A stretch of 64,000 nt of DNA from an uncultured Candidatus Saccharibacteria bacterium (lineage in GTDB: Bacteria > Patescibacteriota > Minisyncoccia > UBA6257 > 2-01-FULL-56-20), in assembly GCA_965231155.1 (NCBI GenBank), contig OZ246418.1, positions 433,242 through 497,241 of the forward strand, in the 5' to 3' direction. Made by a program: the position numbers and the translations under genes. The notes beneath the pieces are model-generated. The model searched no databases. It was given only the letters and a program-made list of their open reading frames with translations, and was not told the DNA's origin. Below, in pieces: positions 593 through 55,160 of this stretch. Each line of letters begins with the position of its first letter. The first letter of the stretch is position 1.

Positions 593-1360
593 GTGGGTAT
601 GGAGTATCGCACAGCCAAGCAGTTGGTTTACGGTGGGATCTACCTCGCCGTTTTTCTTTGGATAGCTTTTTGGTTTTATTTTTTGATTGTGAAGCCGGCA
701 CCATCCTGTTTTGATAAAAAACAGAATCAGAATGAAGAAGGAGTGGATTGTGGGGGAGTATGTGCTCGTTTTTGTGTACCAGAGAATCTTGGACCAGTGA
801 GCGTGGTTGATGAGATTAGTATTTTTTATCCGATCCCCGATAAGGCGACAGTTCTCACACGCATAAAGAATCCTAATGCTTCGCACGGTGCATCGGTTTC
901 CTATTTAATCACTTTGTACAACTCTCAGGATCAACCAATCATGAGCGTTCCTCAGGAAGCTATTCTCTATCCAAGTCAGGTGCGGTATGTGATTGTGCCG
1001 AGTGTTGATTTGTCAGAGATTTCATCACCGATTGCCAGAGCCCAACTTCATTTTCAGAAGATTGATTGGCAACCCGCGGAACTTTTCCACCAGCCGCAAG
1101 TTACTGTTCGTGATCAGGAAGTTTCTCGGGAGGGGAATTTTGTGCAGGTAAAAGGGAATATCACTAATGATGACTTAGTAGATGTACCAGAGGCAACCGC
1201 CGTTGCGGTGTTTTTCAATCAGTTTCGTATTCCTATTGGTGCAGCGAAAACAGATCTTTCCCAGCTTGGCTCAGGGGAGACTCGAGAGTTTACCATTGTG
1301 CATCCGATGCTTCCTGGTTTAATGCGTGAAAGGACTCAGGTTTTTGTAATGACTGATTAA
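593..1360 (+). CDS. hypothetical membrane-anchored protein (N-terminal TM helix)
   Basis: 255-aa ORF with a hydrophobic N-terminus; no recognisable motif. Confidence 0.4.
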   Translation: MGMEYRTAKQLVYGGIYLAVFLWIAFWFYFLIVKPAPSCFDKKQNQNEEGVDCGGVCARFCVPENLGPVSVVDEISIFYPIPDKATVLTRIKNPNASHGASVSYLITLYNSQDQPIMSVPQEAILYPSQVRYVIVPSVDLSEISSPIARAQLHFQKIDWQPAELFHQPQVTVRDQEVSREGNFVQVKGNITNDDLVDVPEATAVAVFFNQFRIPIGAAKTDLSQLGSGETREFTIVHPMLPGLMRERTQVFVMTD

Positions 1361-1364
1361 TACC

Positions 1365-2411
1365 GTGTTTTCTCGTCTCCTTATTCCCTCGGGGATACTT
1401 GTGCTTTCAAGCCTCCTTGTTTTGAGTAGTATTGCTTCTTCTTTGGTGTTATCTCAATTTCTTTGGGTGAGTCTTGGAGCAATAGGTGCGTTTTTCTTTT
1501 TCTTCTTTGACCCTCGGATCATCACGACCTCTCCGCGAATGTTATGGGGTTTCTATTTTTTTGTATTGTTCCTTTTACTTATTTCTCTTGTTAGTCCTGT
1601 GGTTCGACAAACACAGAGCTGGGTTCGATTCGGTGTTGTGAACTTCCAGCCAGTAGAACTGGCGAAAGTCGCCCTAATCCTTCTTTTTGCTTATTTTTTC
1701 AGTCGTCGCCATTTACAAATCGGAGTCTGGTCTACTGTCTTTTCCTCCTTTTTTATTTTGGCTTTGCCTATCATGCTGGTGGTCTTGCAGCCAGATTTTG
1801 GTTCAGCACTTATCCTGAGTGGTATTTGGTTTGGCTTTCTTCTTTTGAGCGGTTTGCCTTGGAAGCATCTTTTAACAATGATAGCAGTGCTTCTCGTTGG
1901 TCTTATCTTTATGTGGCATTTTGTTCTCAAGGGGTATCAGCGGGAAAGAATTATGAATGTCTTCTATCCCGAACAGAACGCATTAACGTATAATTACAAT
2001 GTTATTCAGTCGAAGATCGCTATTGGTTCGGCTGGATGGTGGGGGAAGGGATATGGTCAGGGATCGCAGGTTCAGGCCGGGTTTCTCCCAGAGGCGCAGA
2101 CCGATTTTATTTTCGCCGCTTTGATAGAGGAGTGGGGATGGTTGGCAGGAATATTTATTGTCAGTGTTTTTGGATGGTTACTTCTGGAGATCCTACGGGT
2201 TGGTCAGAATGCCGATCAGAATATTGGACGATTCATTTGTTTAGGGACAGTCCTCACGTTTCTCATTCAGTTTTTCCTTAATATTGGTTCGGTAATTGGT
2301 CTTTCGCCAGTAGTCGGTGTACCTTTCCCACTTTTAAGTTACGGAGGTTCAAGCCTGATTACTTCATTATTTCTTTTAGGCATTATTCATGGCATTTCTA
2401 TCCGATCTTAA
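1365..2411 (+). CDS. ftsW: SEDS-family peptidoglycan glycosyltransferase (FtsW/RodA)
   Basis: Polytopic; conserved SEDS block GKGYGQGSQVQAGFLPEAQTDFIFAALIEEWG. Confidence 0.8.
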   Translation: MFSRLLIPSGILVLSSLLVLSSIASSLVLSQFLWVSLGAIGAFFFFFFDPRIITTSPRMLWGFYFFVLFLLLISLVSPVVRQTQSWVRFGVVNFQPVELAKVALILLFAYFFSRRHLQIGVWSTVFSSFFILALPIMLVVLQPDFGSALILSGIWFGFLLLSGLPWKHLLTMIAVLLVGLIFMWHFVLKGYQRERIMNVFYPEQNALTYNYNVIQSKIAIGSAGWWGKGYGQGSQVQAGFLPEAQTDFIFAALIEEWGWLAGIFIVSVFGWLLLEILRVGQNADQNIGRFICLGTVLTFLIQFFLNIGSVIGLSPVVGVPFPLLSYGGSSLITSLFLLGIIHGISIRS

Positions 2412-3357
2412 ACTAAAATTCTTAGTTATTGGTGTACTACTGACATTAGCGGTACCCGTTTTTTCTTTACGACCAGTAGATATTCATGGCACAACTCAGG
2501 TTTTTGAAATAGCGCAAGGAGAGAGATTCTGGCAGATTATTGGTAAATTGCAGAAGGCTGGACTTATTCGTTCATCATCGGTGACTGGCCTTGTGGCTCT
2601 TGGGCGAGGACAGGCAGGCTCACTAAAGCCCGGCCGATATCAGTTAAGCCCCGCATTTTCTAGCGTGGAAATTATTGATCTACTAGAGAATGGTGCGCGT
2701 CATGAGGTAACAGTGGTGGTGCCGGATGGCGCCTCTCTTTATGAAGTCGATATGCTTCTTGCCAAGGCTGGAGTGTTGCTTCCGAATAGTCTTCTTCCGA
2801 AACACGATCAGTTAGAAGGTCGTCTCTTCCCTGACACCTACCGATTTTTTTCAGGCGCTTCTTCTTCTGAGGTAATAGATAAGCTGACACAAAATTTTGA
2901 AATAAAGATTGGCCCTCTTCTGCCCGCAGGAGATGAGGATCAACAGCGGGTGATTATTCTGGCTTCTCTCGTCGAGAAGGAGGTTCCTAATCTTTCCGAT
3001 GGTCAGGTGGTGGCTGGTATCCTAGAAAAACGTCTTCGAGTGGGAATGCCTTTGCAGGTTGATGCTACACTTTGCTATGCGAAATTAGAGCGGGCAGCAA
3101 AGAGGGGGCTACCCTATGAACCGTGTACTCCTCCTTCGGCGTCCGATAAGGCGATTAACTCTCCTTATAACACCTACCGAAACAAGGGTCTCCCTCCCGG
3201 ACCAATTGGTAATCCGAGTCGTTGGGCTTTTGAGGCTGTACTTGGGGCGAAGACCTCTCCTTACTGGTTTTATATTAGCGATCCAAAGACGGGAGCAACT
3301 ATTTTTGCAAAAACCCTCGAGGAGCATAATCGAAATATAGCTAAATACCTACGATAG
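2389..3357 (+). CDS. mltG: endolytic murein transglycosylase MltG (YceG family)
   Basis: N-terminal TM plus the YceG signature SPYNTYRNKGLPPGPIGNPS. Confidence 0.8.
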   Translation: MAFLSDLKLKFLVIGVLLTLAVPVFSLRPVDIHGTTQVFEIAQGERFWQIIGKLQKAGLIRSSSVTGLVALGRGQAGSLKPGRYQLSPAFSSVEIIDLLENGARHEVTVVVPDGASLYEVDMLLAKAGVLLPNSLLPKHDQLEGRLFPDTYRFFSGASSSEVIDKLTQNFEIKIGPLLPAGDEDQQRVIILASLVEKEVPNLSDGQVVAGILEKRLRVGMPLQVDATLCYAKLERAAKRGLPYEPCTPPSASDKAINSPYNTYRNKGLPPGPIGNPSRWAFEAVLGAKTSPYWFYISDPKTGATIFAKTLEEHNRNIAKYLR

Positions 3358-3408
3358 GGGTCTGACGGGCTGTCGTACACAGTTCATCCCCAGCCTACTC
3401 CTTAGTCC

Positions 3409-3437
3409 TTGACTCTCCCTGGAGTTCGGGTTAGAAT
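3409..3437 (+). promoter_or_regulatory. candidate sigma70-type promoter upstream of rpoBC (TTGACT-17-TAGAAT)
   Basis: TTGACT at 3409-3414, 17-nt spacer, TAGAAT at 3432-3437; a 7-bp hairpin CCTGCTT/AAGCAGG sits in the leader near 3560-3590. Confidence 0.3.
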
Positions 3438-3606
3438 CTTTGAACACTATAAAGAAAAGCCTACTTGAGGGGTTTGTTTTTCTTTTTTCAGGGGAGGGGG
3501 ATAGGAGTTTCATCATATGGGTCAGTAAATAAATTTAATAAATTAAAGGTCTTTTTTACCTGCTTCCAACAATAAGCAGGAAGTACTTTTTTCGCCACAA
3601 AAACGT

Positions 3607-6600
3607 ATGTCACTAAAAGTCTCTGAGGTAAAGGATTTTGGTAAGTTTAAGCCAGGGGTCGCGCAGCCACATCTGAACGATGTTCAGATCAATTCGTATG
3701 AGCATTTCTTGAGGAACGGACTGAAGGAGTTGCTCGCGGAGATTTCTCCGATTCGTGATCACACCGGCAAAGAGCTGGAACTTTATTTTGAAGACTATCG
3801 TTTTGATGAGCCAAAGTACGACGAGGTGACCTCTCGTCACAAGGAGGCGACTTTTGAAGCCGCCTTGCGCGTGAAACTCCGTTTAGAAAATAAAAAAACC
3901 GGACAAAGCACTTCTCAGGAAGTGTATCTTGGCGACTTCCCGATTATGACCAAGCGAGGCACGTTCATTATTAATGGCGTGGAACGTGTGGTTATCTCTC
4001 AGTTAATTCGTTCGGCCGGTGTCTATTTTGTGGCGACACCCTGGCATGGACGAAATTTATTTGGAGCAAAGATTATTCCAAACCGTGGCGCCTGGCTTGA
4101 GTTTGAGACTGATGTTGATGGCGTGATTGGTGTAAAGATTGATCGTCACAGAAAAGCGGCCGTTACCGACCTCCTCCGTATCTTTGGTAATACTGAAGAA
4201 ATCTCTCCCTCACTCTTTTCCGATGTGGATAAGGGCACAATTAAATATTTAGAAGCAACCCTCAAAAAAGATGGCGCGAAGGACTTAGCGGAGTCCTATT
4301 TAGAAATCTATCATCGTCTTCGCCCTGGTGATCCGGCGACGATTGAGACGGCTAAGAACTTGGTGGATAGTATGTTTAAGCGTTTTGATCGTTACGATCT
4401 TTCTCCGGTCGGACGTTTCAAGCTGAACCAGCGATTAGGATTTGCTCAGAAAAAAGATCAGCGCCTTTTGGATGTTGATGATCTTTCGGCCATCGTTCGG
4501 GAGATTATCCGTTTGAATAATGATCCACACGCGATGGAGGATGATATCGATCACTTGGGTAATCGTCGTCTTCGTACCGCTGGAGAACTTCTGGAATCTC
4601 GCTTGCGAATCGGTTTGGCTCGTTTGCGACGTATCGTCCAGGATCGAATGTCCACTTTGGAGCGGACTAGCCTTTTGCCAAGTCAGTTGGTGAACTTCCG
4701 TCCATTAGGTGCCGCGGTGAAGGAGTTTTTCTCTTCTTCACAGCTTTCGCAGTTTATGGACCAGGTCAATCCTTTGGCTGAGGTTGAACACAAGCGACGT
4801 CTCTCAGCTCTTGGGCCAGGTGGTCTCACTCGAGAACGTGCTGGCTTTGAAGTGCGCGACGTCCATCGTTCTCACTATGGTCGTATCTGTCCGATTCAGA
4901 CCCCAGAAGGTTCAAACATTGGTTTGATCAACTATTTGGCAAACTTTGCCCGAGTGAACGAACTTGGTTTCTTAGAGGCACCGTATGTGAAGGTGGAGAA
5001 GGGGAAGATTACCAAGGAAGTTATTTGGATGAATGGTTTGGAAGAGGAGCGATACAAGATTGGTCATGGTGGTATTCCTCGCGATGCGAGTGGGAAAATT
5101 ACCCTACCATTAGTAGAAGCTCGTATTAATGGTGAGCCAGGAGTCTGTAGTGCCGAAGATCTGGATTTTGTAGACGTGGCGCCGAATCAGTTTATTTCGG
5201 TGGCGACTTCTTTGATTCCGTTCTTACAGCACGATGACGCCAACCGTGCCTTGATGGGTTCGAACATGCAACGTCAGGCGGTTCCTTCGATTCGTCCACA
5301 GGCGCCGTATGTCGGTACTGGTATGGAAGGGAAGGTGGCTGAAGATTCTGGTTATGTGATTAAGGCTGAAGAGGATGGTGAGATTATTGATGCCGATGCC
5401 CAGCATCTTAAGGTTCGCTATGAAAAAGCCGGCGTGAAAGAGTATCGATTACAGAAGTTTGAACGATCCAACCAGTTTACGAGTCTTTCGCAGCGCCTTT
5501 TGGTCTCGGGTGGCAAGGTGAAGAAGGGACAGAACTTGATTGATGGTCCTTCGACCGATCAGGGGCTCTTGGCGCTTGGACAGAACCTCTTAGTCTCCTT
5601 CGTTTCTTGGGAGGGTGCGAACTTCGAAGACGCTATCATCTTGTCGGAGCGGGTGGTGAAGGATGATCGTTTCACCTCCATTCATATTGAAGATTTCTAC
5701 TGTGATGTCCGTGATACCAAACTTGGTCCTGAAATCACCACGCCAGATATTCCAAATGCCTCTGAAGAAAAACTCCGCAATCTTGATGAGGAGGGTATTA
5801 TTCGTATTGGTGCCGAAGTAAAAGCCGGCGATATTTTAGTTGGAAAAATTTCTCCGAAGGGTGAGGCAGAACTGACTTCCGAAGAACGACTTTTGCGAGC
5901 CATTTTCGGTGAGAAGGCGAGCGATGTGAAAGACACTTCGCTGACCTTGCCACACGGAAAGCGTGGCCGGGTTATTGGTATCAAAGTTTTCTCGCGCGAT
6001 CAGGGTGATAAGCTTGAACCAGGAATTATCCGTCGCATTCAGGTAGAGATTGCTACCTTAATGAAGGTACAGTCTGGTGACAAGCTCGCCGGTCGTCACG
6101 GAAACAAAGGTGTTATTTCCCAGGTTCGTCCAGTCGAAGATATGCCATACCTCGAGGATGGAACGCCAGTGGATATTATTTTGAATCCACTTGGTGTGGT
6201 TTCTCGTATGAACCTTGGACAGATTTTGGAAACGCATCTTGGCTGGGCGGCAGGAACGATGGGCTTCCGCGTGGTTGCTCCAGCTTTGGAGAAGTTTACC
6301 GAGGAGACGCTTCGCAACGAACTCAAGGAGGCTGGTCTTCCAGAAGATGGGAAGGCGGTCCTTTATGATGGACGTACCGGACAGGCATTTGATCACACCG
6401 TGACCGTGGGGCAGATCTATATGCTCAAGCTGAACCACTTGGTCGAAGACAAGATCCACATGCGTTCAATTGGGCCGTACTCTTTGATTACTCAGCAGCC
6501 ACTTGGTGGTAAGGCGCAGTTTGGTGGTCAGCGCTTTGGAGAAATGGAAGTCTGGGCCTTGGAAGGATATGGTGCACGACACGTCTTGCACGAAATGTTG

Positions 6601-9600
6601 ACGATTAAGTCTGACGACGTCTTAGGGCGATCGGCAGCCTATGAAGCGATTATCCGTGGTGAGCAGTTGCACACTTCGAACGTGCCAGCTTCCTTTAATG
6701 TGTTGGTCAATGAGTTGAAAGCGTTAAGTTTTAACATCAATCCATTGCACGAAGAGGTGGCCGGAGCGGATCGTCTGAAGTCTTTGCAGATTAGTATTGC
6801 ATCACCAGAAGATATTATGCGGTGGTCGCATGGTGAGGTACTGAAGCCAGAAACCATCAACTATCGAACACAGCGTCCAGAAAAAGATGGACTGTTTTCT
6901 GAGCGTATTTTCGGTCCAACGAAGGATTATGAGTGTTACTGTGGAAAGTATCGTCGACTACGATACAAGGGAGTGGTGTGTGATAAGTGTGGTGTTGAGG
7001 TGACTCGGGCCATCGTTCGTCGTGACCGACTTGGTCATATCTCTTTAGCGGCACCAGTCAGTCATATTTGGTTCCTGAAGACTGTACCCTCGCGTATGAG
7101 TTTGCTTTTGGACGTTCAGTCCAGCCGTCTCGATCGCGTGGTCTATTATATTGATTACATTATTACAGAAGTTTCCGAGGAGAATCGTCAGCGGGCCTTG
7201 ACCGATCTTGGACGTGAGCTGAAGAGTCGCGTGGGACTCCTGACTAAAAAGGATAAGGAGATGAAAGGCGACCTTGAGGATGCGGCTGAACGAATGGAGG
7301 AGCTTCTGACCGATCTTCGTGTAGGGAGCGTTTTGACTGAAGTTGAGTACTTCCACCTAGCTCGTCGTTTCGGTGATGTTTTCAAGGCGGGCAGTGGCGC
7401 AGAAGCTATTCGCAGTATCTTCGAGAAGATGGATTTGAAGGATGAGGTGCAGAAGGTGAATAAGGCATTGGAGAAGGCGAAGAGTCCACTTTTAGAGATC
7501 AAACTTTTACGTCGGTTGAAGATGCTGAAGTCGATGATCAAACACAACATGCGTCCTGAGTGGATGATCATGACCGTGCTTCCAGTTCTGCCACCAGATC
7601 TTCGTCCGATGGTTGCTTTGGATGGTGGTCGCTATGCCACTTCTGATTTGAACGATCTTTATCGTCGTGTCATCAACCGTAATAATCGATTGAAGAAGCT
7701 TTTAGAGATTAAGGCGCCGGAAGTGATTGTCCGCAACGAGAAGCGTATGCTTCAGGAAGCGGTCGACGCGTTGATTGATAACTCAATTCGTTTCGGCTCT
7801 CAGCAGCTTTCTGCTCAGCGTCGTCCACTACGCTCCTTGTCTGATATGTTGAAAGGAAAGCAGGGACGTTTTCGTCAGAACTTACTTGGAAAGCGCGTCG
7901 ACTACTCTGGCCGTTCGGTCATTGTGGTTGGTCCGAAGTTGGCGATCAACCAGTGTGGTCTGCCAAAGAAGATGGCCTTAGAACTTTTCCGTCCATTCGT
8001 AATTAGTGGCATTATCGCCAAAGGTTTGGCTCACAACATTAGAAATGCCAATCGCTTGATTGAGCAGGGTCCAGATGAGGTCTGGGCAATTCTTGAAGAG
8101 GTGATTAAGGATAAGCGCGTGCTTCTGAACCGTGCGCCAACCTTGCACCGTCTCTCCGTCCAGGCCTTCCGTCCATTCTTGGTTGAAGGTTCGGCTATTC
8201 AGATTCCACCGCTTGTCTGTGATGCCTTTAACGCTGACTTTGATGGTGACCAGATGGCCGTACACGTTCCTTTGTTCGATAAGGCTCAGGAGGAGGCAGC
8301 AAATATTATGGACTCCAGCCACAACTTGCTGAAGCCAGCAACTGGCGATTTGGTGGCCATGCCGAGCAAAGACATGGTCTTGGGTATGTATTATCTGAGT
8401 AGTCTTTTACCGAAGGGTGAGACACTGCGTTCGGTGAATGACATTAATGATGCGCAGTTAGCGTATGATCACAACATTATCTCATTGCGAGAACCAATCT
8501 TGATGCGTACTGCCGAGGGGATCGTCGAGACTTCTTTAGGCCGAGCGATGATTGATAGAATTTTTGAGGGGACTGGCGTGAAGGTGACCGAGAATCTTAC
8601 TAAGAAAAAATTACAGCGATTGATTGAACGGGTTTTTGATAACTGTGGTCCAGAGCGAACGGTGCAGGTCTTGGATGCCGTGAAGTTGCTCGGTTTTGAA
8701 ATGGCCATGCGTTCGGGTACGACCTGGAGCACTGCTGATCTTTTGATTCCGGCCGGTAAGCCAAAAGTTATCGACGAAGCCGAGGAGAAGGTGGCGGTGG
8801 TTCGCGAACAGTTTGAGCAGGGACTTTTGACTGAGTCGGAGCGACGGGTGCGAACTATTGCAGTCTGGGAAGATGCCAAGAAGGCGATTGCTCAGATGGT
8901 AACGAAAGCTTTGCCGATTGATAACTCAATCTACCGAATCATTGATTCTGGTGCGCGTGGTTCGTGGGCTCAGCCAATTCAGATGATGGGTATGAAAGGT
9001 TTGGTGGCCAACCCGAAAGGTGACACTATCGAACTGCCAATTCGATCTTCTCTGAAGGAAGGTTTCAGCGTATTGGAGTACTTCATTGCTACTCACGGTG
9101 CGCGTAAAGGTACTACTGATACCGCGTTGAAGACGGCTCAGGCTGGTTATCTGACACGTCGTTTGGTTGATGTGGCTCAGGATATTATGATCCGTGAAGC
9201 TGACTGTAAGACCAAGGAAGGAATCGAAATCTTCCGTGAAGACGGTGAGGATCTTGGGTACTCATTTGGAAATCGCTTGTTCTCTCGAACAGCGGCCGAG
9301 GAGGTGAAGCTTGGTAACAAGGTGGTGGTCAAAGTTGGTGAGATTATTACCAAAGAAGCGGCTCAGGAGATTGAGAAGTCGAATTTGGCCAGCCTCAAGC
9401 TTCGTTCACCAATTACTTGTAAAACACTCTATGGTATTTGTGGCACCTGTTATGGCTTGAACTTGGCTGACAATCGTCCGGTTGAGGAAGGTCTGGCGGT
9501 TGGTGTTATTGCGGCGCAGTCCATTGGTGAACCGGGAACTCAGCTCACCATGCGTACTTTCCACACTGGTGGTATCGCCGGACTCGACATTACTCACGGT

Positions 9601-10398
9601 TTGCCTCGTATCGAAGAGCTTTTCGAAGCACGGGCACCAAAAGGTAAGGCAATTCTTGCCATGGCCGATGGAGTGATTGAAAGTGTTGAGACGAAGGGAA
9701 ATCTGAAGATCTTGGCACTCAAGGAAACTGGTGGACGAGTAGGTAAAGTGGCCAAAGTCACGAAGACGGCTAAGAAGGATAAAATTATCGAATACAAGTT
9801 GCCAGCCCACGCCATGGTGTATGTGAAAGCTGGAGATATGGTTCAGCGGGGGACTCAGCTCTCTGAGGGTCACTTGGATCTTCGCGAGTTGCTCACATTG
9901 AAGGGTACGCAGGAAGTTATTCGGTATATTACTCGCGAGGTGCACAAGATTTACTTGGCAGAAGGTGCTTCGATTCACAACAAGCATATCGAGGTCATCA
10001 TTCGTCAGATGTTCTCTCGGGTGAAGATTTCCGAGTCTGGTGACGCACCAGATTTGATCTTGGGAGAGATTGTGGAGCGATCTCGTTTCCTTGAGGTTAA
10101 TCGTGAGTTGAAGAAGCAGGGTAGTGGTTTGGCTCAGGCCGAACAGTTACTCTTGGGTATCACTCGCGTCGCCCTTTCCACTGAGAGTTTCCTTTCGGCA
10201 GCTTCTTTCCAGGATACGCCACGGGCGTTGGTGAAGGCCGCAGTTGAGGGGAGAATCGATGCCCTTCGTGGTCTTAAGGAAAATGTTATTATCGGGCGCC
10301 TCATTCCTACGGGTTCCATTATCTCCGAGGAGCCGGTTTCTGATGAGGGAATTGCCGCTGCTACCTCTGTTTCCGAAGCCGTAGAAGATGAGTCCTAA
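3607..10398 (+). CDS. rpoBC: DNA-directed RNA polymerase beta-beta' fusion (RpoB fused in frame to RpoC)
   Basis: N-terminal 1050 aa carry RpoB motifs ([43 protein letters not shown]) and end with an E. coli-like RpoB C-terminus ([22 protein letters not shown]). After a short [11 protein letters not shown] linker comes the RpoC N-terminus ([51 protein letters not shown]) and [14 protein letters not shown]. There is no stop or frameshift at the junction (about nt 6760). Confidence 0.9.
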
Positions 10399-10454
10399 AT
10401 CAGCTCAATCGGTTTGACTTTATTGCCCTCTTCGATTACCCTCTACTCACACAT

Positions 10455-10907
10455 ATGACAGAACGAGAAGACAATCATAAAGACTACGAAATCGCCTTCC
10501 TTCTCTCGGAAGAGTCTGATTTAAAGGGTCTTTTGGACATCTTAAAACAGCATGAAGCGACCATTACATTTGAAGGTCCTTTGAAGAAGATTGCTCTGGC
10601 CTACGAGATCAAGAAGCAGTCTTCGGCTCACTTCGGTTTTATTCGTTTCACTGCTCCGCCTGCACAGATCCCTAGTCTTGAACAAGTTCTTGTTCTTCAC
10701 CAGCCCGTACTTCGCTCACTGATTGTGACCTATGTGCCAGGAAGAGCCACCGTGCCTCGAGACCCTTCCGCAGTACCAGTGATTGCCGCGGCCTCTTTGG
10801 CTGATGCGACACCGGTTGTCGTTGAACCAGCAGTGGTTACTCCTGGACATAGTCTTCCTCTCAGCAATGAAGATCTAGAAAAGAGGATTGAAGAGATCCT
10901 GAAGTAA
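10455..10907 (+). CDS. rpsF: 30S ribosomal protein S6 with C-terminal extension
   Basis: YEIAFLL...KKIALAYEIKK...FGFIRF pattern typical of S6; conserved rpsF-ssb-rpsR order. Confidence 0.75.
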   Translation: MTEREDNHKDYEIAFLLSEESDLKGLLDILKQHEATITFEGPLKKIALAYEIKKQSSAHFGFIRFTAPPAQIPSLEQVLVLHQPVLRSLIVTYVPGRATVPRDPSAVPVIAAASLADATPVVVEPAVVTPGHSLPLSNEDLEKRIEEILK

Positions 10908-10910
10908 TCT

Positions 10911-11384
10911 ATGAATCTAAACAAGGTTTTCATCCTAGGAAGACTGACTGCTGATCCTCAGCTCAAAAGCACACCGAGCGGACAGTCAGTTGGGAGTTTC
11001 TCGGTTGCAACCAGTCGTTACTGGAAAGATAAAGCAGGTGCTCGCCAGGAGAAGACTGATTATCACAATATTGTAGTGTGGGGTCGACAGGCGGAAATCG
11101 CCAGTCAGTTTCTCACGCGTGGGGCATTAGTTTTTGTGGAGGGTCGGATTGAGACTCGTTCCTGGCAGGATAAGCAGGGAGTAGAGAGGAAAACTACAGA
11201 GATTGTGTGTGATCGTATGCAACTTGGTCCACGAACAACAGGTGGAGAGGCGGGCGGTTTCCGTCCAAAGGCGGATAGCTCTTCTCAGTCCACTGCTCAG
11301 CCATTGGTCGAAGAGATTCCCATTGTGGACATCGAGGATGAGGCGAAAGACGAAACTAATAAAACAGACGATATTCCATTTTAA
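10911..11384 (+). CDS. ssb: single-stranded DNA-binding protein
   Basis: OB-fold N-terminus (NKVFILGRLTADPQLK...VVWGRQAEI) and acidic C-terminal tail ending DDIPF. Confidence 0.85.
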   Translation: MNLNKVFILGRLTADPQLKSTPSGQSVGSFSVATSRYWKDKAGARQEKTDYHNIVVWGRQAEIASQFLTRGALVFVEGRIETRSWQDKQGVERKTTEIVCDRMQLGPRTTGGEAGGFRPKADSSSQSTAQPLVEEIPIVDIEDEAKDETNKTDDIPF

Positions 11385-11389
11385 GAAAT

Positions 11390-11590
11390 ATGATTCAGTG
11401 CTACTTCTGTTCGCAAAACTTCAAAGAGATTGACTATAAGGATTCCGAACTTCTCAAGCGGTTTGTTTCTAGCCAGGCAAAAATTATTGACCCTCAGCAT
11501 AGTGCGGTGTGCGCGAAGCACCAGCGAGCACTGGCCATGGCTATCAAGCGAGCACGGTTTCTTGGACTACTCCCATACGTTCGTCAGTAA
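11390..11590 (+). CDS. rpsR: 30S ribosomal protein S18
   Basis: 66 aa; CYFC...IDYKD...LKRFVS...AIKRARFLGLLPY. Confidence 0.85.
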   Translation: MIQCYFCSQNFKEIDYKDSELLKRFVSSQAKIIDPQHSAVCAKHQRALAMAIKRARFLGLLPYVRQ

Positions 11591-11696
11591 TTCGTACACT
11601 GCATAGTCATCTGACATCATTAGGTTCTCCACTTCGCCTTTACTGTACTTCTCGTACAGCTCAGTTGCGATGTTTTTATTCTGGTATAATTGAAAG

Positions 11697-12251
11697 ATGA
11701 TGGATTTTAACTACCGAGTATTTCAGGCGATTTTTTCTTTTGCAGGAAAAAGCCCAGTCCTCGATGCATTTGGGATATTTTTGGCCGAGTACCTCCCTTA
11801 TTTCTTGGTAGCTGGGATATTTTTTTTCGTGTTTTCTTATGATGGATGGCGGAAGAGAGGAGCGCTTACCATCTTTTTTATTTTCTCGCTTATTCTTTCT
11901 CGAGGGGTTATCGGGTATTTGATTAGTTTTTTCTTCCCTATTGATCGTCCGTTTATTCCTCTGGATTTTGTACCTTTGGTTGGCAAAGTGGTATCTCCAG
12001 CGTTTCCTGCGGGATATGCTGTTGTCTTTTTTACTCTTGCCTTTGCACTCTTTTGTGTAAATCGCAGTTGGGGAGGGATATATTTTTTAGCCGCAAGCGT
12101 AGTAAGTTTCGGCCGGATTTTTGTTGGCGTACAATGGCCACTTGATATCTTGGGGGGTCTTCTCGTTGCTTTTCTTGGCACAGGGATTAGTTGGTTGCTT
12201 TTCCAGCCATATTTAAAGAAGCTACTCTTCTCCGAAAGGGGAGGGAGATAG
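11697..12251 (+). CDS. PAP2-like polytopic membrane protein (catalytic motifs degenerate)
   Basis: 6 TM; PAFPAGY and FGRIFVGVQWPLD resemble PAP2 motifs PSGH and SRx5Hx3D, but the catalytic His residues are replaced. Confidence 0.35.
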   Translation: MMDFNYRVFQAIFSFAGKSPVLDAFGIFLAEYLPYFLVAGIFFFVFSYDGWRKRGALTIFFIFSLILSRGVIGYLISFFFPIDRPFIPLDFVPLVGKVVSPAFPAGYAVVFFTLAFALFCVNRSWGGIYFLAASVVSFGRIFVGVQWPLDILGGLLVAFLGTGISWLLFQPYLKKLLFSERGGR

Positions 12252-12269: not shown

Positions 12270-14156
12270 ATGTACTATAATGAAGGGTACATGACCTTCA
12301 TTCTTTTTATTGGGGGATTGTTTCTTTTAGTGCGTGTTTCTAATTTGAGTAGTAGGGTCCAGCGGCTAGAGCGTTTAATGGAGAAGGATATTGCTCAGCG
12401 CAAAGTTGAAGGAGATGTTCAGCCTAGTTTATCTGAGAAAGATTCAGCAAAGATAAAATCTGTTCCCGCATCTCTTCTGGACTACACCAGGCAACAGTTG
12501 AGGCGAGGGGAGTCGGTGCAGGGTATTACCCAAGCTCTTCAGTCGAAGGGGTGGTCGTTGGAAGACATTGACCAGGCTTTTGAAACTGTTGGTCGTTCAA
12601 GTCAGCCGGCTATTGAGTTATCTAAAATTGGTCCCTCGGAAGGTGATAAGTTTATTGCCTGGCTCAAGGAAGATTGGCTTCTCAAGCTTGGTGCGTTCCT
12701 CCTCCTCGTTGGATTCGGTTGGCTTACTACGTATGCCTTCCTCAATAACTGGATTGGTCCGATGGGACGAATTGTTCTAGGTATAGTCGCGGGGACACTT
12801 TTTCTTATCTTGGGGTCATGGAGGATTCAGAAGTATGTTCAGCAGGGAGGAGTTTTCCTCGTGCTTGGTTCAACAGTCATTCTCCTCACAGTCTTTGCTG
12901 CTCGGGCGGTGTATGGATTCTTTACTCCAATTTCCGCCCTGGCGCTGATGTTCCTTAGTACTGCCTTTGTGGCACTATCGAGCGTACGGTATCGCAGTCG
13001 GCCGTTAGCTTTAGTTAGTCTCATTTTGGCGGGCGTGGCACCACTACTTACCAGTTCGCCAACTGCTGATTACGTAGGATTATTTTCCTACCTCTTGATT
13101 GTTATCTTGGGAACGGTTTGGGTGGTTGCAGTGACAGAAATGAGAGAGCTGACTCTCGCCGGATTACTTTTAGTGGCGTTTCATAGCTTCTTGTCCGTAG
13201 GCTCATCTGAGGCGACGGACACGGTATTGCTGTTTGTTTATGCATTTGCAGCCATCTTTTCTATTACCAATACTCTGGGCATACTGAAAGCGAAAGGGAA
13301 AGAGATTACTTCTGATCTTTTTTGTGCTTCTGCCAACGGCCTCTTCCTCTTGTCTTGGATTATGATCGCGGCTCCTGAAGAGTGGAAGAGTCTTATTATC
13401 TGCGCCTGGATGGTAGTGTTTGCAGTCGGTGGGTTCTTGACTCTTCAGCTGACCAATCGCCGAGAACCGTTCTATGCCTATCTTGGAGTTAGTGTTGCCA
13501 TGTTAGCGGCAGCGACTTCGGTTCAGTTGGATGGAGCGTCTCTTACCATCGCCTATATTATCGAGAGTGGAATGATTTCGCTTATTGCGTATGCAATCCT
13601 AAAAGATTTGGCTATTGCCGAACGTCTTAGTCTTCTCCTTATCGGCCCGGTTGTTCTCAGTTTTGAGAGTATGAGCGCACTTTCTTGGGAGCTAGGTGTT
13701 TTTCACAAAGATTTCTTTGTGTTATTGACTCTTGGGACTGTTCTCTTTGGTCTTGGTCTTTTTTTCTTTAGTCGTATTCGTGAGGAGAAAGATGAGATAC
13801 GACAGCTTAACGCTTTCTTACTGAATGCCGGCTCTTTCTATTTGTACGTACTGCTCTGGCTCTCTCTAGGCGCTGGCTTCCAGAATGACAATTTGGCAGT
13901 TCTTGGTTCTTTGGTGGTCTATACCATTATCGGTTTGATTGCTTATTTTTATGGTTTAGCCAACGAAAAGAAAGGCATAAGACTTCATGGAGTGGCGCTC
14001 ATTGTGTTTGTTATCGGACGACTCTTTTTGATTGATGTGTGGTCGATGGAGTTGGCCGGAAGGATTGTGACATTTTTTGCAATAGGTGCCTTACTCGTAA
14101 GCACTGCATTTTTAGGGAGGGGGCGGAGAAAAAGTGATTCTTCAGTTATTCTTTAA
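12270..14156 (+). CDS. large polytopic membrane protein (DUF2339-like architecture)
   Basis: 628 aa; N-terminal TM, soluble linker, then more than 12 TM helices. Confidence 0.4.
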
Positions 14157-14163
14157 TAAGACT

Positions 14164-15327
14164 ATGAAATCAAAAAGTTTTTTATTCTTGTTCGTTCTCT
14201 TGTTGCCGATAGCAGATGTAAACGCTCAGGGGTTGTCTCAGATGACTTCTTCGGTTTTTAGTGCGTATCGAGAATATAAAGATGTTGATTTGCCGTCGAT
14301 TAAGGTGCCAACCGTGGTAGAAGTTCCTTTTGGAAATCAGATAGTTGATCGCTTAGAGTTTGCAGTTTTTGATAAGACTACTCAATCATTTGAACCATAC
14401 TTTTTTAAACAGGAGACTTTGACAAATGAGGTGCCAGTTTCTATCAACTTCAACTCGAATATAGGAGCAGAAGATGCTCAGCTGATGATAGATGGAAATT
14501 CTCGGACGTATGCCAATTTTCTCCTCCCTGAGGATCAGCAGGGGCGGGTTCAGATTTCTCTTGTAAGTTCTCAGCCAATCACTTCTTCATTGCTCACTGT
14601 GCTTTTGGATAACAATGTTGCCTTACCTACATCGGTGGAGATCCGAGCAGTCGTGAATGGTCAGAATAGAATCGTGGTGGCGAATCAAAGAATGCTAGAA
14701 GAACGTATTCATTTCCCACAGACGAGTTCACGTCAGTGGACTATTACTTTTCTTTTTAGTCAGCCACTACGTATTAATGAGTTGCGTCTACACCAGGATA
14801 ATCTTACTAGAAGCACCGTCCATGCCGTTCGTTTCCTAGCTCAGCCAACTCACGAGTATCGTATTTATCTTAATCCTGATAGATCGGTGGTTGCTCCTGT
14901 TGGGGAAGCTGGGGACTTGGCCTTTGCTCGAGATGTGAAGATCTTGCCATCTTCTTTACCCGAGAGGAATCTAAGCTACGTAATTGCCGATATAGACGAT
15001 GATGGATTACCTGATATTCGTGATAACTGTGTAATGACGCCGAATCCTGATCAGGAGGATCTCAATGGTAATGGGCGGGGAGATTTATGTGATGATTTTG
15101 ATCAGGATAGCGTAGGCAACCTGGAAGATAACTGTCCTAATAATCCAAATCGATACCAGGAGGATAGGGACGGTGATCGGATTGGTGATGTGTGCGATAC
15201 CGAAGAGAGTAGGCTAACCGAGCGATATACTTGGATACCTTGGGTTGGCATTGGTTTTGCCGCCTTAGTCCTTATTGTTCTTTTTGCACTAACCGTTCGA
15301 TCAAAGCCTATTCTAGAAGATAAGTAG
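14164..15327 (+). CDS. secreted/anchored protein with thrombospondin type-3 (calcium-binding Asp-rich) repeats and C-terminal TM anchor
   Basis: Signal peptide [23 protein letters not shown]; repeats [71 protein letters not shown]-terminal hydrophobic helix. The upstream ORF start at 14134 overlaps the preceding gene, so the ATG at 14164 was chosen. Confidence 0.6.
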
Positions 15328-17138: not shown

Positions 17139-18605
17139 TTAACTTGGGCGAACTACGAGGTGATCACCTTTTTTGATCATCGTTTCTGAATTAATCATTA
17201 GACCACACTCCTTACCGACAGGGACTTCGTTGGCATCAGCTTTATTGTGTTGTAGGTTGGTAATCCTACCTTTCCCGATGACGGTTTCGCCTCGGACGAT
17301 CTCAAAGGCCCGTTTGTTTTTCAAAACGCCTTCAGTGACTTTACCTCCGACTACCTGTTTTTCTGGTTCCATCTGATTGAAGACGGCGAGGATTTCTAGA
17401 TCGCCTTCTGGTGGAGGAGTGGAGTCCTGACCAATTTTTTCCAACTCTTCGATGAGTTTATAGATGATGTCTGATTCAAGAATCTTTACTTTGTGAGTTT
17501 CCGCGAGTCGTTTGGCGGCGGTGTTCACTTTGACATGGAAGGCAATCACGATGCTGTGGGTGGAGACGGCCAACTGGATATCGCCATCATATACCTCACC
17601 AACCGAGGTGCTTTTTACGAAAAGGGGTTTATGTGTGGTCATCGCCTGAATCGTGGCAGTGAGTGCCTCGAGGGAACCACTATTTTCTGCCTTGAGGATG
17701 AGGGAGATGCCTTTTTCTTCTTCAGTGGCATAGGGAGAGAGGCCAGAGAGATTGGTGGAACGACTGGCCACGGCCTGAGAGGTCGAGTTTTCGAGTTCGA
17801 TACTGTCTCCGGCGATAAACTCTTCGCCGATAGCAGGCAGTTCTTCAAACCCCATAATCATTGCCGGAGAGGAGGGGACAAGCTCGTTTACGGTTTTGCC
17901 AAGGAAATTTTCGAGGATTTTTATTTTACCGCCAGTTTTTCCAACGGCGATTTTCTGGCCTCTTTTGAGGGTGCCATTTTTTACAATGACCACTACTTCC
18001 AGTCCACGATTTTTGTCTCTCTTGGCTTCGAGAACATAGCCAGAGGCTTGAGCTTTTGGATCATAAGTGAGACTTTCGAGTTCAGCAGCTAAGAGGAGGA
18101 GATCAAGAAGTTCATCAACGCCTTCGCCAGTTTTTGCGGAGATCGGTTGGTAGCTGATGTTCCCACCGTAGCCTTCAAGGAAGACGCCATTTGTGGTGAG
18201 GTCGTTTTTTACCTTATCGAGATCAGCGCCAGGACGATCAATTTTCGTGATACCAACTACGAACGGAGTTTTGCTTTCGGTTAAAATTTTGATTGCTTCG
18301 GCAGTCTGGGGTTTTACACCTTCATCAGCGGCCACGACAAGAATGGCAAGATCGGCTGTCGTAGCGCCTCGCGAACGCATTTTAGTAAAGGCTTCGTGGC
18401 CAGGAGTGTCGATGAAGGTAATCTTTTTTCCAGAGTGTTCAATCTCATAGGCACCAATCGATTGAGTAATACCACCGGCTTCTTTGGCGGCGAGGTTGGT
18501 TTTTCTGATATAGTCGATGAGCGTAGTTTTTCCATGATCGACGTGACCCATAACTACCACAATCGGTGGGCGGGGAAGTAGGTTTTGTGTGTCAGGAGTT
18601 GCCAT
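17139..18605 (-). CDS. infB: translation initiation factor IF-2 (short form lacking the N-terminal extension)
   Basis: G-domain VVVMGHVDHGKTTLID, DTPGHEAF, AADEGVKPQT, C-terminal beta-barrels. Start set at the ATG (MATPDTQ); the GTG at 18635 is also possible. Confidence 0.85.
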   Translation of the reverse strand: MATPDTQNLLPRPPIVVVMGHVDHGKTTLIDYIRKTNLAAKEAGGITQSIGAYEIEHSGKKITFIDTPGHEAFTKMRSRGATTADLAILVVAADEGVKPQTAEAIKILTESKTPFVVGITKIDRPGADLDKVKNDLTTNGVFLEGYGGNISYQPISAKTGEGVDELLDLLLLAAELESLTYDPKAQASGYVLEAKRDKNRGLEVVVIVKNGTLKRGQKIAVGKTGGKIKILENFLGKTVNELVPSSPAMIMGFEELPAIGEEFIAGDSIELENSTSQAVASRSTNLSGLSPYATEEEKGISLILKAENSGSLEALTATIQAMTTHKPLFVKSTSVGEVYDGDIQLAVSTHSIVIAFHVKVNTAAKRLAETHKVKILESDIIYKLIEELEKIGQDSTPPPEGDLEILAVFNQMEPEKQVVGGKVTEGVLKNKRAFEIVRGETVIGKGRITNLQHNKADANEVPVGKECGLMINSETMIKKGDHLVVRPS

Positions 18606-18678
18606 AATGTCTGTACAGAATAGCCGAAAAGACACACAAATACAAGCTTTTTAAAAAATCGTCCAGGGGGTGTTTATT

Positions 18679-52811: not shown

Positions 52812-55160
52812 ATGAAGAAGGATATCGAAAATATCCAGAAATATGTGCGGGCAACAAATTATATTGTGGCAGCACAGTTGTATCTTCAGGATAATTTTTT
52901 ACTGGAAAGGAAACTGACTCAGGCGGATATCAAACCCCGTCTTTTGGGTCACTGGGGGACTTGTCCGGGAATCAACTTTGTCTATGCACAACTGAATTAT
53001 CTGATTAAGAAGCATGACCTGGAGATGCTTTTCGTGCTTGGCCCGGGGCATGGCTTTCCAGCCTTACAGGCCAATCTCTTTTTAGAAGGAACGTTAGAAA
53101 AATTCTACCCTCAAGCTACTCGAGACGAGGCCGGTCTGGCGTATATCGCGAAAAACTTCAGCTGGCCATATGGATTTCCGAGTCACTCTAATCCTGGTAC
53201 GCCGGGTGTTATTTTGGAAGGAGGGGAGTTGGGGTATTCGCTTTCAACAGCCTATGGTGCGGTGCTTGATAATCCGAATCTTATCGCGGCTTGTTTGATT
53301 GGTGATGGCGAGGCGGAGACTGGGCCGTTAGCGACTGCCTGGCATTTAAATAAATTTGTCAGTCCACGGACGAGCGGTACGGTTTTGCCAATTTTACATC
53401 TCAACGGATATAAGATCTCCGGTCCGACCGTTTTTGGCAGAATGAGCGACAAGGAACTCCTTTCTCTTTTCTATGGATATGGCTACGATCCGGTTATTGT
53501 GGAGGGCGAAACTACTGCCGTATACGAAAAAATGGCTACGACCCTTGAGGCGTCATACCGCAAGATTGTTACTTTGCGAAAGAAAGCGCGGAAGGGCAAA
53601 GGTGTTGTTTCGCCTCGCTGGCCGATGATCATTCTTCGCACACCAAAAGGTTGGACTGGCATAAAAACATTGAAGGGCAAAAAAATTGAAGGTAACTGTC
53701 TGGCCCATCAAATTGTGGGCACTGAAGCAAAGACTGACAAGGAGGAGTTTGTGGCGGTGGAGTCGTGGATGCGTTCGTATAAAATCGCACAACTTTTTTC
53801 TAAAGAAGCAGGATTTTCTAAGGAAGTGCTCAGTCTTGTGCCGCGGGAAGAACTGCGTATGGGGATGAGTCCTCATGCCCTGGCTAAAAATAGTAAGAGT
53901 TTAGTTTTACCAAAGACGGATAAGTTTTTGAAAAAGACTGGTGCGCCGGGCAGTGTGACGGCCAGCAGTATGATTCAGGCAGGGGCATTTTTAAGGGAGG
54001 TGATTCGTCTTAATGATAAAGAAAAAAACTTTCGATTTTTCTCGCCGGACGAGACCTACTCCAATAAACTTGATGTAATTTTTGAGGTGACGAAGCGGTC
54101 TTTTGTCTGGCCACGGAAACCCTGGGATAAGGATCTGGCTGATGATGGCCGAGTGATTGAGATGCTCAGTGAGCATTCCTTGCAGGGCTTGAATCAGGGG
54201 TATGTCCTGACCGGTCGTCATGCGGTGTTCGCATCGTATGAGGCGTTTGTGGAGATTGTTTCGAGTATGGTTGATCAGTATGCCAAGTTTTTGCGCGTGT
54301 CGCGCGAGGAGATCCCTTGGCGCAATGAAGTTCCTTCGCTGAACTACATTTTAACCTCTTCTGGATGGCGACAGGAGCATAATGGTTTTTCTCATCAGAA
54401 TCCGTCGTTTATTAGTGCCATGCTTGAGAAGCAGGGATGTTTTGTGAAGGTTTATTTTCCTCCAGATGCGAATAGTACTCTTGAAGTACTGAAGGCCTGC
54501 CTCGAAATGAAAAACGAAATTCATGTCATTGTGGCCGGGAAGACTCCTGAGCCTTTATGGCTCACGCCTGAACTGGCGAGAAAAGAACTGAGTCGTGGCT
54601 TGATGGTCTGGGATTTTGCCAGCGATGATAATCCCGACATTGTCTTTGCCGGTATCGGCGACTATCTCACCAAAGAAGCCTTAGCTGCGGTGGATGTACT
54701 GAAAGACAAGCTTCCTCGTCTACGGATCCGGTTTGTAAATATCATGGAACTGACCGCTCTGGGTATTGGCGATGAGAGTTGCCGTGTGTCCTTGCTTGAT
54801 TCAGATGAGTTTTTCACTCATGATAAGCCGGTTATTATGAATTTTTATGGCCATCCAGAAGCGCTTCAGCCAATGGTGGTAGCTCAGAAACATCCTGGTC
54901 GTTTTCGGGTGCATGGCTATATCGAACATGGTTCCACAACCACGCCGTTTGATATGCAGGTGAGAAATAAGACTAGTCGGTATCATTTGGCCATCGAGGC
55001 GGTCCAGTTGATGGCTGAGAAGTGCGTCATTATGAAGAGTCAGGCAGATGAGTTGCAGGCGGAGTGGGAGGAAATTTTAAAGAATCATCGTGCGTATATC
55101 GAGGAGTATGGTATCGATCCTCCGGAAATAGAAAACTGGAAATGGAAAAGAAATATTTAA
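52812..55160 (+). CDS. xfp: xylulose-5-phosphate/fructose-6-phosphate phosphoketolase
   Basis: 782 aa; LGHWGTCPGINFVYAQLN, EGGELGYSLSTAYGAVLDNPNLIAACLIGDGEAETG (ThDP motifs), characteristic length. Confidence 0.9.
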   Translation: MKKDIENIQKYVRATNYIVAAQLYLQDNFLLERKLTQADIKPRLLGHWGTCPGINFVYAQLNYLIKKHDLEMLFVLGPGHGFPALQANLFLEGTLEKFYPQATRDEAGLAYIAKNFSWPYGFPSHSNPGTPGVILEGGELGYSLSTAYGAVLDNPNLIAACLIGDGEAETGPLATAWHLNKFVSPRTSGTVLPILHLNGYKISGPTVFGRMSDKELLSLFYGYGYDPVIVEGETTAVYEKMATTLEASYRKIVTLRKKARKGKGVVSPRWPMIILRTPKGWTGIKTLKGKKIEGNCLAHQIVGTEAKTDKEEFVAVESWMRSYKIAQLFSKEAGFSKEVLSLVPREELRMGMSPHALAKNSKSLVLPKTDKFLKKTGAPGSVTASSMIQAGAFLREVIRLNDKEKNFRFFSPDETYSNKLDVIFEVTKRSFVWPRKPWDKDLADDGRVIEMLSEHSLQGLNQGYVLTGRHAVFASYEAFVEIVSSMVDQYAKFLRVSREEIPWRNEVPSLNYILTSSGWRQEHNGFSHQNPSFISAMLEKQGCFVKVYFPPDANSTLEVLKACLEMKNEIHVIVAGKTPEPLWLTPELARKELSRGLMVWDFASDDNPDIVFAGIGDYLTKEALAAVDVLKDKLPRLRIRFVNIMELTALGIGDESCRVSLLDSDEFFTHDKPVIMNFYGHPEALQPMVVAQKHPGRFRVHGYIEHGSTTTPFDMQVRNKTSRYHLAIEAVQLMAEKCVIMKSQADELQAEWEEILKNHRAYIEEYGIDPPEIENWKWKRNI

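Follow-up and report, generated by a model that had tools for sequence, protein, structure and literature searches.

Does the large open reading frame (ORF) on contig OZ246418.1 of an uncultured Candidatus Saccharibacteria bacterium truly join the RNA polymerase (RNAP) subunits beta (RpoB) and beta' (RpoC) in one polypeptide, and is this join an accident of one assembly or an inherited trait? The ORF lies in a stretch of 64,000 nt (positions 433,242 to 497,241 of the forward strand, assembly GCA_965231155.1; GTDB lineage Patescibacteriota, Minisyncoccia, UBA6257, 2-01-FULL-56-20), which is called the window throughout. We concluded that it is very probably a real, inherited beta-beta' fusion of independent origin, which would have arisen by loss of a stop codon and spacer in a near-neutral change.

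An initial annotation of the window, made from the sequence alone, had proposed an in-frame rpoB-rpoC fusion in an ORF of 2263 aa, and the ORF list, the translation, Pfam and NCBIfam all agree with this. Window positions 3607 to 10398 form one uninterrupted ORF with an ATG start and no internal stop in its 2263-aa translation; an open frame of 2263 codons cannot arise by chance. Pfam placed 11 domains on it in canonical order, six Rpb2 (beta) domains followed by five Rpb1 (beta') domains. The parts and motifs of the ORF are as follows.

3607..10398, + strand: fused rpoB-rpoC ORF, 2263 codons plus a TAA stop (ORF list, translation, Pfam domains)
3607..6756, + strand: RpoB (beta) part, aa 1-1050 (NF001616, TIGR02013)
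4750-4776, + strand: rifampicin-cluster-like motif QFMDQVNPL in the RpoB part (motif search)
6538-6558, + strand: motif GEMEVWA in the RpoB part (motif search)
6757..6771, + strand: tether VAGAD, aa 1051-1055, the only residues aligning to neither beta nor beta' chains
6772..10395, + strand: RpoC (beta') part, aa 1056-2263 (TIGR02386)
6934..6990, + strand: beta' N-terminal zinc-binding motif CYCGKY...CDKC, aa 1110-1128 (regular expression on the translation)
8230..8250, + strand: catalytic Mg2+-binding motif NADFDGD, aa 1542-1548 (motif search)
9205..9450, + strand: second beta' zinc site C...C...C..C, aa 1867-1948 (motif search)

Both halves are complete. The RpoB model NF001616 matches aa 8-1045 over model positions 3-1093 of 1096 with 1470 bits (NCBIfam cutoff 896), and TIGR02013 scores 1464 bits against a cutoff of 801, which places this half in the RpoB family. 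The RpoC model TIGR02386 matches aa 1060-2238 over positions 2-1141 of 1147 with 1505 bits (cutoff 963.5), likewise at family level. NADFDGD and both Cys4 zinc sites are intact in the RpoC part, and the N-terminal zinc motif is invariant in a 12-sequence alignment. The halves had been called unusually compact. At 1050 aa the RpoB part is indeed rather short. In the nearest non-fused Patescibacteria, however, RpoB measures 1050-1090 aa and RpoC 1188-1201 aa; since their subunits are similarly short, the compactness is a trait of the lineage and has no connection with the fusion.

The junction DNA reads ...AAC CCA TTG CAC GAA GAG GTG GCC GGA GCG GAT CGT CTG AAG.... An 11-residue linker had been proposed here, which is too long, and the junction, although present as claimed, had been quoted without the residues ISI between SLQ and ASP. 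In a PDB search with the fragment aa 901-1200, beta chains end at query positions 150-153 and beta' chains begin at 156-159; that is, solved beta chains align to aa ~1050-1053 and beta' chains from aa 1056, equivalent to E. coli beta' residue 16. About five residues (VAGAD) thus lie outside both subunits, and RLKSLQ belongs to the beta' N terminus since the beta' chains already align from aa 1056. None of the 60 best PDB matches was a fused chain. Among relatives the tether is the most variable spot and carries in-frame indels; of 111 scorable proteins, 95 have 35 aa between the conserved motifs on either side of it. The fused relatives fall into the small lineage of the window protein (P0001-P0005), with linkers EEVAGADRL, ETQVSAADRL or NPSGPKRL, and a main clade with YESETDRKDDF. 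The main-clade join is partly conserved: Y in 87/95 proteins, R in 87/95, K/R, D/E, and then an invariant F, which we take to be E. coli beta' F17; given this match, most of the apparent linker would be structured beta' N terminus. The fused form joins the natural beta C terminus to a beta' that lacks its initiator and two to five N-terminal residues.

Junction, non-fused state: ...NVELLSDGKDDKPKKKK, stop codon, spacer, MENLKAIKLKIASPDD...
Junction, fused main clade: ...NIQPLYESETDRKDDFSALKISVASPED...
Junction-spanning tryptic peptide, main-clade type: SLGFNIQPLYESETDR

A sequencing error that added or removed a stop at the junction had been named as what could overturn the fusion, and this was excluded by independent genomes. 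Protein P0525, from an independent Logan assembly and in the same 90%-identity cluster as the window protein, is also fused (99.6% identical in the RpoB part, 98.5% in the RpoC part), and its linker differs from that of the window by an in-frame one-residue indel and substitutions (EEALGGAD vs EE-VAGAD). A junction that is translated would be expected to vary in length by whole codons where constraint is weakest. With the full-length query, at least 120 clusters (120/120 of those listed; from NCBI, JGI, ENA and Logan) consist of proteins of 2240-2322 aa with both domain sets and 68-89% identity. Two loci, L001 (78% identity) and L006, are fused at the DNA level. The architecture of a natural beta-beta' fusion, one frame with neither stop nor frameshift, is therefore seen again in independent genomes.

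How far the fusion extends was read from trees of both halves. In addition to 120 fused proteins, the main RpoB tree (neighbour-joining, NJ; 1023 columns) contained 120 close short RpoBs, 18 Parcubacteria RpoBs from further away and 5 outgroups. The fused proteins group in a single clade, which takes in only four short sequences: P0407 and P0415 (NCBI "partial"), which end abruptly as if truncated, P0405 (1360 aa), a truncated fusion carrying an Rpb1_1 domain, and P0406. The sister group is a non-fused RpoB clade of 102 tips with K/E-rich tails (for example ...LIKEEEGKKKK and stop), a tail that the fused proteins lack, and fourteen more non-fused tips lie beyond it. A reduced RpoB set, in which 41 close non-fused RpoBs served for comparison, gave the fused clade (again including P0406) in 100/100 NJ bootstraps. 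In the RpoC tree, built from 35 fused proteins, the rpoC genes of L086, L087, L002 and L004 and those of seven other Patescibacteria loci, the fused proteins were strictly monophyletic, also in 100/100 NJ bootstraps. The window lineage is the earliest branch in the fused clade (5 tips vs 119). On the RpoB half, identity to the window protein reaches 83-92% among its fused relatives and at most 75% among non-fused RpoBs.

Raw neighbour lists are a poor guide to this boundary. With the RpoB half as query, the 120 best matches were all ~1030-1100 aa (69-75% identity), and the 100%-identical P0001 (2263 aa) was absent. Since candidates of query-like length are favoured, such lists cannot map where fused and non-fused proteins meet; we rejected for this reason a sharp boundary suggested by the all-fused list of the window protein and the 120 non-fused matches of Spechtbacteria P0121. 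In the 50%-identity library the sole representative above 63% identity is the fused P0104, whose cluster presumably absorbed the close non-fused RpoBs. Among the matches listed in a species-representative scan there were at least one fused locus (L006) and at least seven non-fused Patescibacteria loci, the remainder being a control set from other phyla; the non-fused ones included two labelled Saccharibacteria and one each labelled Zambryskiibacteriota, Nomurabacteria, "Parcubacteria group" and Paceibacterota. These placements indicate that the fusion is clade-wide rather than phylum-wide and nested among non-fused Parcubacteria. As to whether it runs through the whole lineage, it is common to one Parcubacteria/Paceibacteria sub-clade and does not extend to all Patescibacteria. 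Fused members are labelled Liptonbacteria, Ryanbacteria, Paceibacterota or Minisyncoccia. The RpoB of P0510, labelled "Liptonbacteria", is non-fused, so NCBI labels of metagenome-assembled genomes are too loose to name the clade.

The non-fused sisters probably show what preceded the fusion. Their gene order is that of the window: a hypothetical protein, RodA, MltG, rpoB, rpoC, ribosomal protein S6, single-stranded DNA-binding protein (SSB), then ribosomal protein S18 or PAP2. The corresponding window genes are:

593-12251: 255-aa hypothetical protein, RodA, MltG, rpoBC, S6, SSB, 66-aa ORF, PAP2/UppP-like protein
11390-11590: the 66-aa ORF, putative S18 by position and size

Relatives of both kinds, fused and non-fused, share this order (L001, L086, L087, L088). 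The bacterial rpoBC genes usually stand in an rplKAJL-rpoBC-rpsLG-fusA setting, and those of the window lie outside it. The non-fused sister Parcubacteria (L087, L088 and Spechtbacteria L002) resemble the window in synteny and compact subunits, with 63-74% RpoB identity; they differ in having a stop codon, a spacer of 1-27 nt, a separate rpoC start and a K/E-rich beta tail. The rpoB-rpoC spacer is 17 nt in L087, 27 nt in L086 and 1 nt in L002 (...EETKED, stop, A, ATG...). This is likely the precursor state. Relatives with separate genes and identical flanks had been proposed as a sign of an assembly artefact. Such relatives exist (L087, L088), but they fall in a sister clade (~71% RpoB identity) instead of being scattered through the fused genomes, and for this reason they point to the ancestral state, not to an artefact. 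In L088 (GCA_016182095.1, "Liptonbacteria"; 8186-8330) no rpoC gene is on record after rpoB; the rpoC frame opens directly after two stops as KLKLKLASPEEV..., and no ATG, GTG or TTG is nearby. The L088 rpoC start is either unusual or affected by a local sequence error.

Natural beta-beta' fusions in Helicobacteraceae and Wolbachia are mentioned in PMC7483510 (citing Lane & Darst, 2010; Zakharova et al., 1999), and the initial annotation had likened the ORF to them. The likeness in architecture is borne out. The Helicobacter/Wolinella-type RpoBC (NF007172, PRK09603) also runs head-to-tail from beta to beta', with two complete halves that meet at their natural termini, but it is ~2890 aa long with lineage-specific insertions, compared with 2263 aa in the window. 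The Wolbachia type (NF011417, PRK14844) has the same architecture with a model of 2839 positions and belongs to a different phylum. The window protein falls below the cutoff of both families: NF007172 gave 2164 bits in six separate stretches against 5372, and NF011417 gave 2024 bits against 4632. Because it fails both curated fusion families and its clade is nested among non-fused Parcubacteria, the comparison indicates an origin independent of the Helicobacter and Wolbachia fusions. A synthetic E. coli beta-beta' fusion is cited in bioRxiv 10.1101/2021.11.05.467461, and a fused rpoBC construct is routine for M. tuberculosis RNAP production (bioRxiv 10.64898/2026.04.06.716786). The engineered fusions show that a tether between the beta C terminus and the beta' N terminus is compatible with assembly and activity; their linkers are artificial and designed, whereas the join in the window is natural, ~5 aa long and inherited in a clade. 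Since natural and engineered fusions are tolerated elsewhere, we propose the same tolerance for the window clade. Cyanobacterial and plastid rpoC1 and rpoC2, and archaeal B'/B'' and A'/A'', show that the number of polypeptides for the beta/beta' modules is flexible. Those split subunits represent the opposite change, fission within a subunit and not fusion between subunits; split-subunit models gave partial matches below cutoff on the window RpoC part. The open-access literature searched yielded only the Helicobacter, Wolbachia and engineered fusions, and no rpoB-rpoC fusion reported from Patescibacteria or the Candidate Phyla Radiation (CPR). The fusion thus appears undescribed in Patescibacteria; its mechanism is familiar and the case itself appears to be new.

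Among the 150 nearest RpoB representatives, at least nine separate 50%-identity clusters are fused. Eight further representatives outside the Patescibacteria fused clade (P0133, P0217, P0229, P0235, P0242, P0244, P0249 and P0257; 2309-2812 aa) have both halves present, and the seven that were scanned (all but P0257) fall below the Helicobacter-type and Wolbachia-type cutoffs. The P0242 cluster comprises six near-identical members (2451-2456 aa), and the other seven are singletons, which could be errors. With eight further fused representatives, one of them backed by six members, beta-beta' fusion seems to recur more often than the two textbook cases would imply.

In the clamp of bacterial RNAP, the C-terminal region of beta packs against the zinc-binding N-terminal region of beta'. 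The proposed origin starts from an ancestor in the Parcubacteria/Paceibacteria that would have carried adjacent rpoB and rpoC genes with a spacer of 1-27 nt. That ancestor would then have lost the spacer along with the stop of rpoB and a few codons at the start of rpoC, with the frame restored, so that the natural beta C terminus would lead through a tether of ~5 residues into beta' from E. coli residue ~16 onward. The resulting single polypeptide of ~250 kDa would stay uncleaved and active and would form an ordinary catalytic core together with alpha2 (and with omega where there is one); it should fold normally because both termini already adjoin in the assembled enzyme. Separate initiation of rpoC translation would be gone, and beta and beta' synthesis would be fixed at 1:1 in cis. 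The fusion is probably close to neutral rather than adaptive, since sisters with the same synteny and lifestyle are unfused and fusions are sporadic elsewhere.

Several observations weigh against a single inherited fusion kept in one active chain. The trees are simple NJ distance trees, and their samples come from a homology search favouring query-like length. The RpoB of contig L086 (ENA ERZ28563803, ANAN16-1 scaffold_1110; 4985-11800) nests inside the fused clade, the exception to fused monophyly on this half; its rpoB is 85% identical to fused-clade members and stops at an in-frame TAA, and rpoC comes after an AT-rich spacer of 27 nt. The L086 rpoC, however, is only 57-62% identical to any fused-clade RpoC and falls outside the clade. 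This mosaic is either a chimeric contig or the product of a replaced rpoC, and we rejected it as a clean secondary re-split given the fused-clade-like rpoB next to a foreign rpoC (~62%). A LAGLIDADG ORF lies upstream in L086 (223-669). For the fragment aa 922-1351 across the junction, an AlphaFold2 model made with the 12-sequence alignment had a mean predicted local distance difference test (pLDDT) score of 50.8 and fell below 50 at the junction, so the tether position is unreadable in it. It is also conceivable, though unlikely, that the small window lineage and the main clade fused separately from a non-fused ancestor: their linkers differ, beta-beta' fusion recurs elsewhere, and the basal split sets 5 tips against 119. 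Parsimony favours one event, for no non-fused lineage branches between the two groups, the combined clade reaches 100/100 on both halves, and the join sits at the same position in both. That an indel or miscalled base erased a stop between two genes in this one assembly might be imagined from the sister spacers, which are so short (in L086 even in frame) that one error could mimic a fusion. The independent 99%-identical Logan assembly with its in-frame indel, the shared architecture in clusters from four sources, the conserved linker length and the fused state as a clade character on both halves leave next to no room for this explanation, which is effectively refuted.

The ORF might be fused and still yield two proteins, by internal initiation near the junction or by proteolysis of the tether; the linker is the most variable segment, and V1051 is encoded by an in-frame GTG (6757-6759) with GAAGAG immediately 5' of it. 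This purine-rich stretch abuts the GTG with zero spacing, however, and no start-capable residue is conserved in the linker, where residues vary freely and Met occurs in 3/95 linker cores; we accordingly rejected V1051 as an internal start. The partly conserved main-clade junction (Y, R-K-D-D-F) fits a structured join better than a cleavage site, and the Helicobacter fusion protein is reportedly intact, all of which makes two products very improbable. Selection might instead maintain the fusion, with the tether making up for weak translational coupling in these reduced genomes or for the lack of an assembly aid such as omega/RpoZ or a chaperone. The constant geometry kept across at least 120 clusters and the lack of a clean reversal in the sample speak for such a benefit. 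Yet sisters with similar biology and the same synteny do without the fusion, fusions are sporadic in other lineages as well, splitting of the H. pylori fusion is said to be tolerated, and a literature search on the rpoZ point found nothing, with the genome data limited to 64 kb. We regard an adaptive fusion as improbable and a near-neutral one as the better account. A bolder proposal, that the fusion is a clade-defining rare genomic change of a large unnamed Paceibacteria sub-clade, kept by selection in place of a missing assembly aid such as omega, and that the number of origins of beta-beta' fusion far exceeds the two textbook cases, is improbable; if true, subunit tethering would be a recurrent response to genome reduction.

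The gap between mltG and rpoBC is 249 nt. No clear Shine-Dalgarno sequence was found before the rpoBC start in this leader, and two candidate elements, both consensus matches only, were noted there:

3409..3437, + strand: promoter-like TTGACT-17-TAGAAT, weak alone (1 found vs 0.5 expected)
3559..3580, + strand: hairpin with T-run, 27 nt upstream of the rpoBC ATG (1 found vs 0.4 expected)

The hairpin may, speculatively, be a leader or attenuator element. Other features of the window are:

1-346: 3' end of 23S rRNA
420-537: 5S rRNA
17139-18635, - strand: short translation initiation factor IF-2, 498 aa
40985-42406, - strand: glucose-6-phosphate dehydrogenase
52812-55160, + strand: phosphoketolase (XFP)

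Window positions 12270-15327 hold a 628-aa DUF2339 membrane protein and then a 397-aa protein with a thrombospondin type-3 repeat. The latter has weak NCBIfam matches to MYXO-CTERM MtsC and Omp28-related models and may be a surface or adhesion protein. Glucose-6-phosphate dehydrogenase and phosphoketolase represent central-carbon capacity in an otherwise reduced genome.

Sequences of the fused proteins have been public for years under the names "subunit beta'" or "hypothetical protein". Since they are annotated in this way, rpoB looks absent from the fused genomes, and a single protein is matched by two universal marker genes, a possible source of trouble for completeness estimates and phylogenomic pipelines. 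NCBI gives the fused protein P0004 of L001 (GCA_018333595.1, JAGXTG010000013.1) the label "Anaplasmataceae bacterium", although it shares 78% identity with the window protein and comes from a locus with Patescibacteria synteny. The label is probably a taxonomic mislabel, which possibly came about through the likeness of its RpoBC to the Wolbachia architecture. Of the beta-beta' modules seen here, the window protein is the most compact at 2263 aa, ~600 aa below the Helicobacter and Wolbachia fusions, and its small size may make it attractive for structural or synthetic work. As a discrete and easily scored character, the fusion could help to resolve relationships inside Paceibacteria. It adds a third large, independently evolved natural beta-beta' fusion lineage in a major uncultivated radiation, and with the precursor state visible in its sisters it offers a clean natural experiment on subunit tethering.

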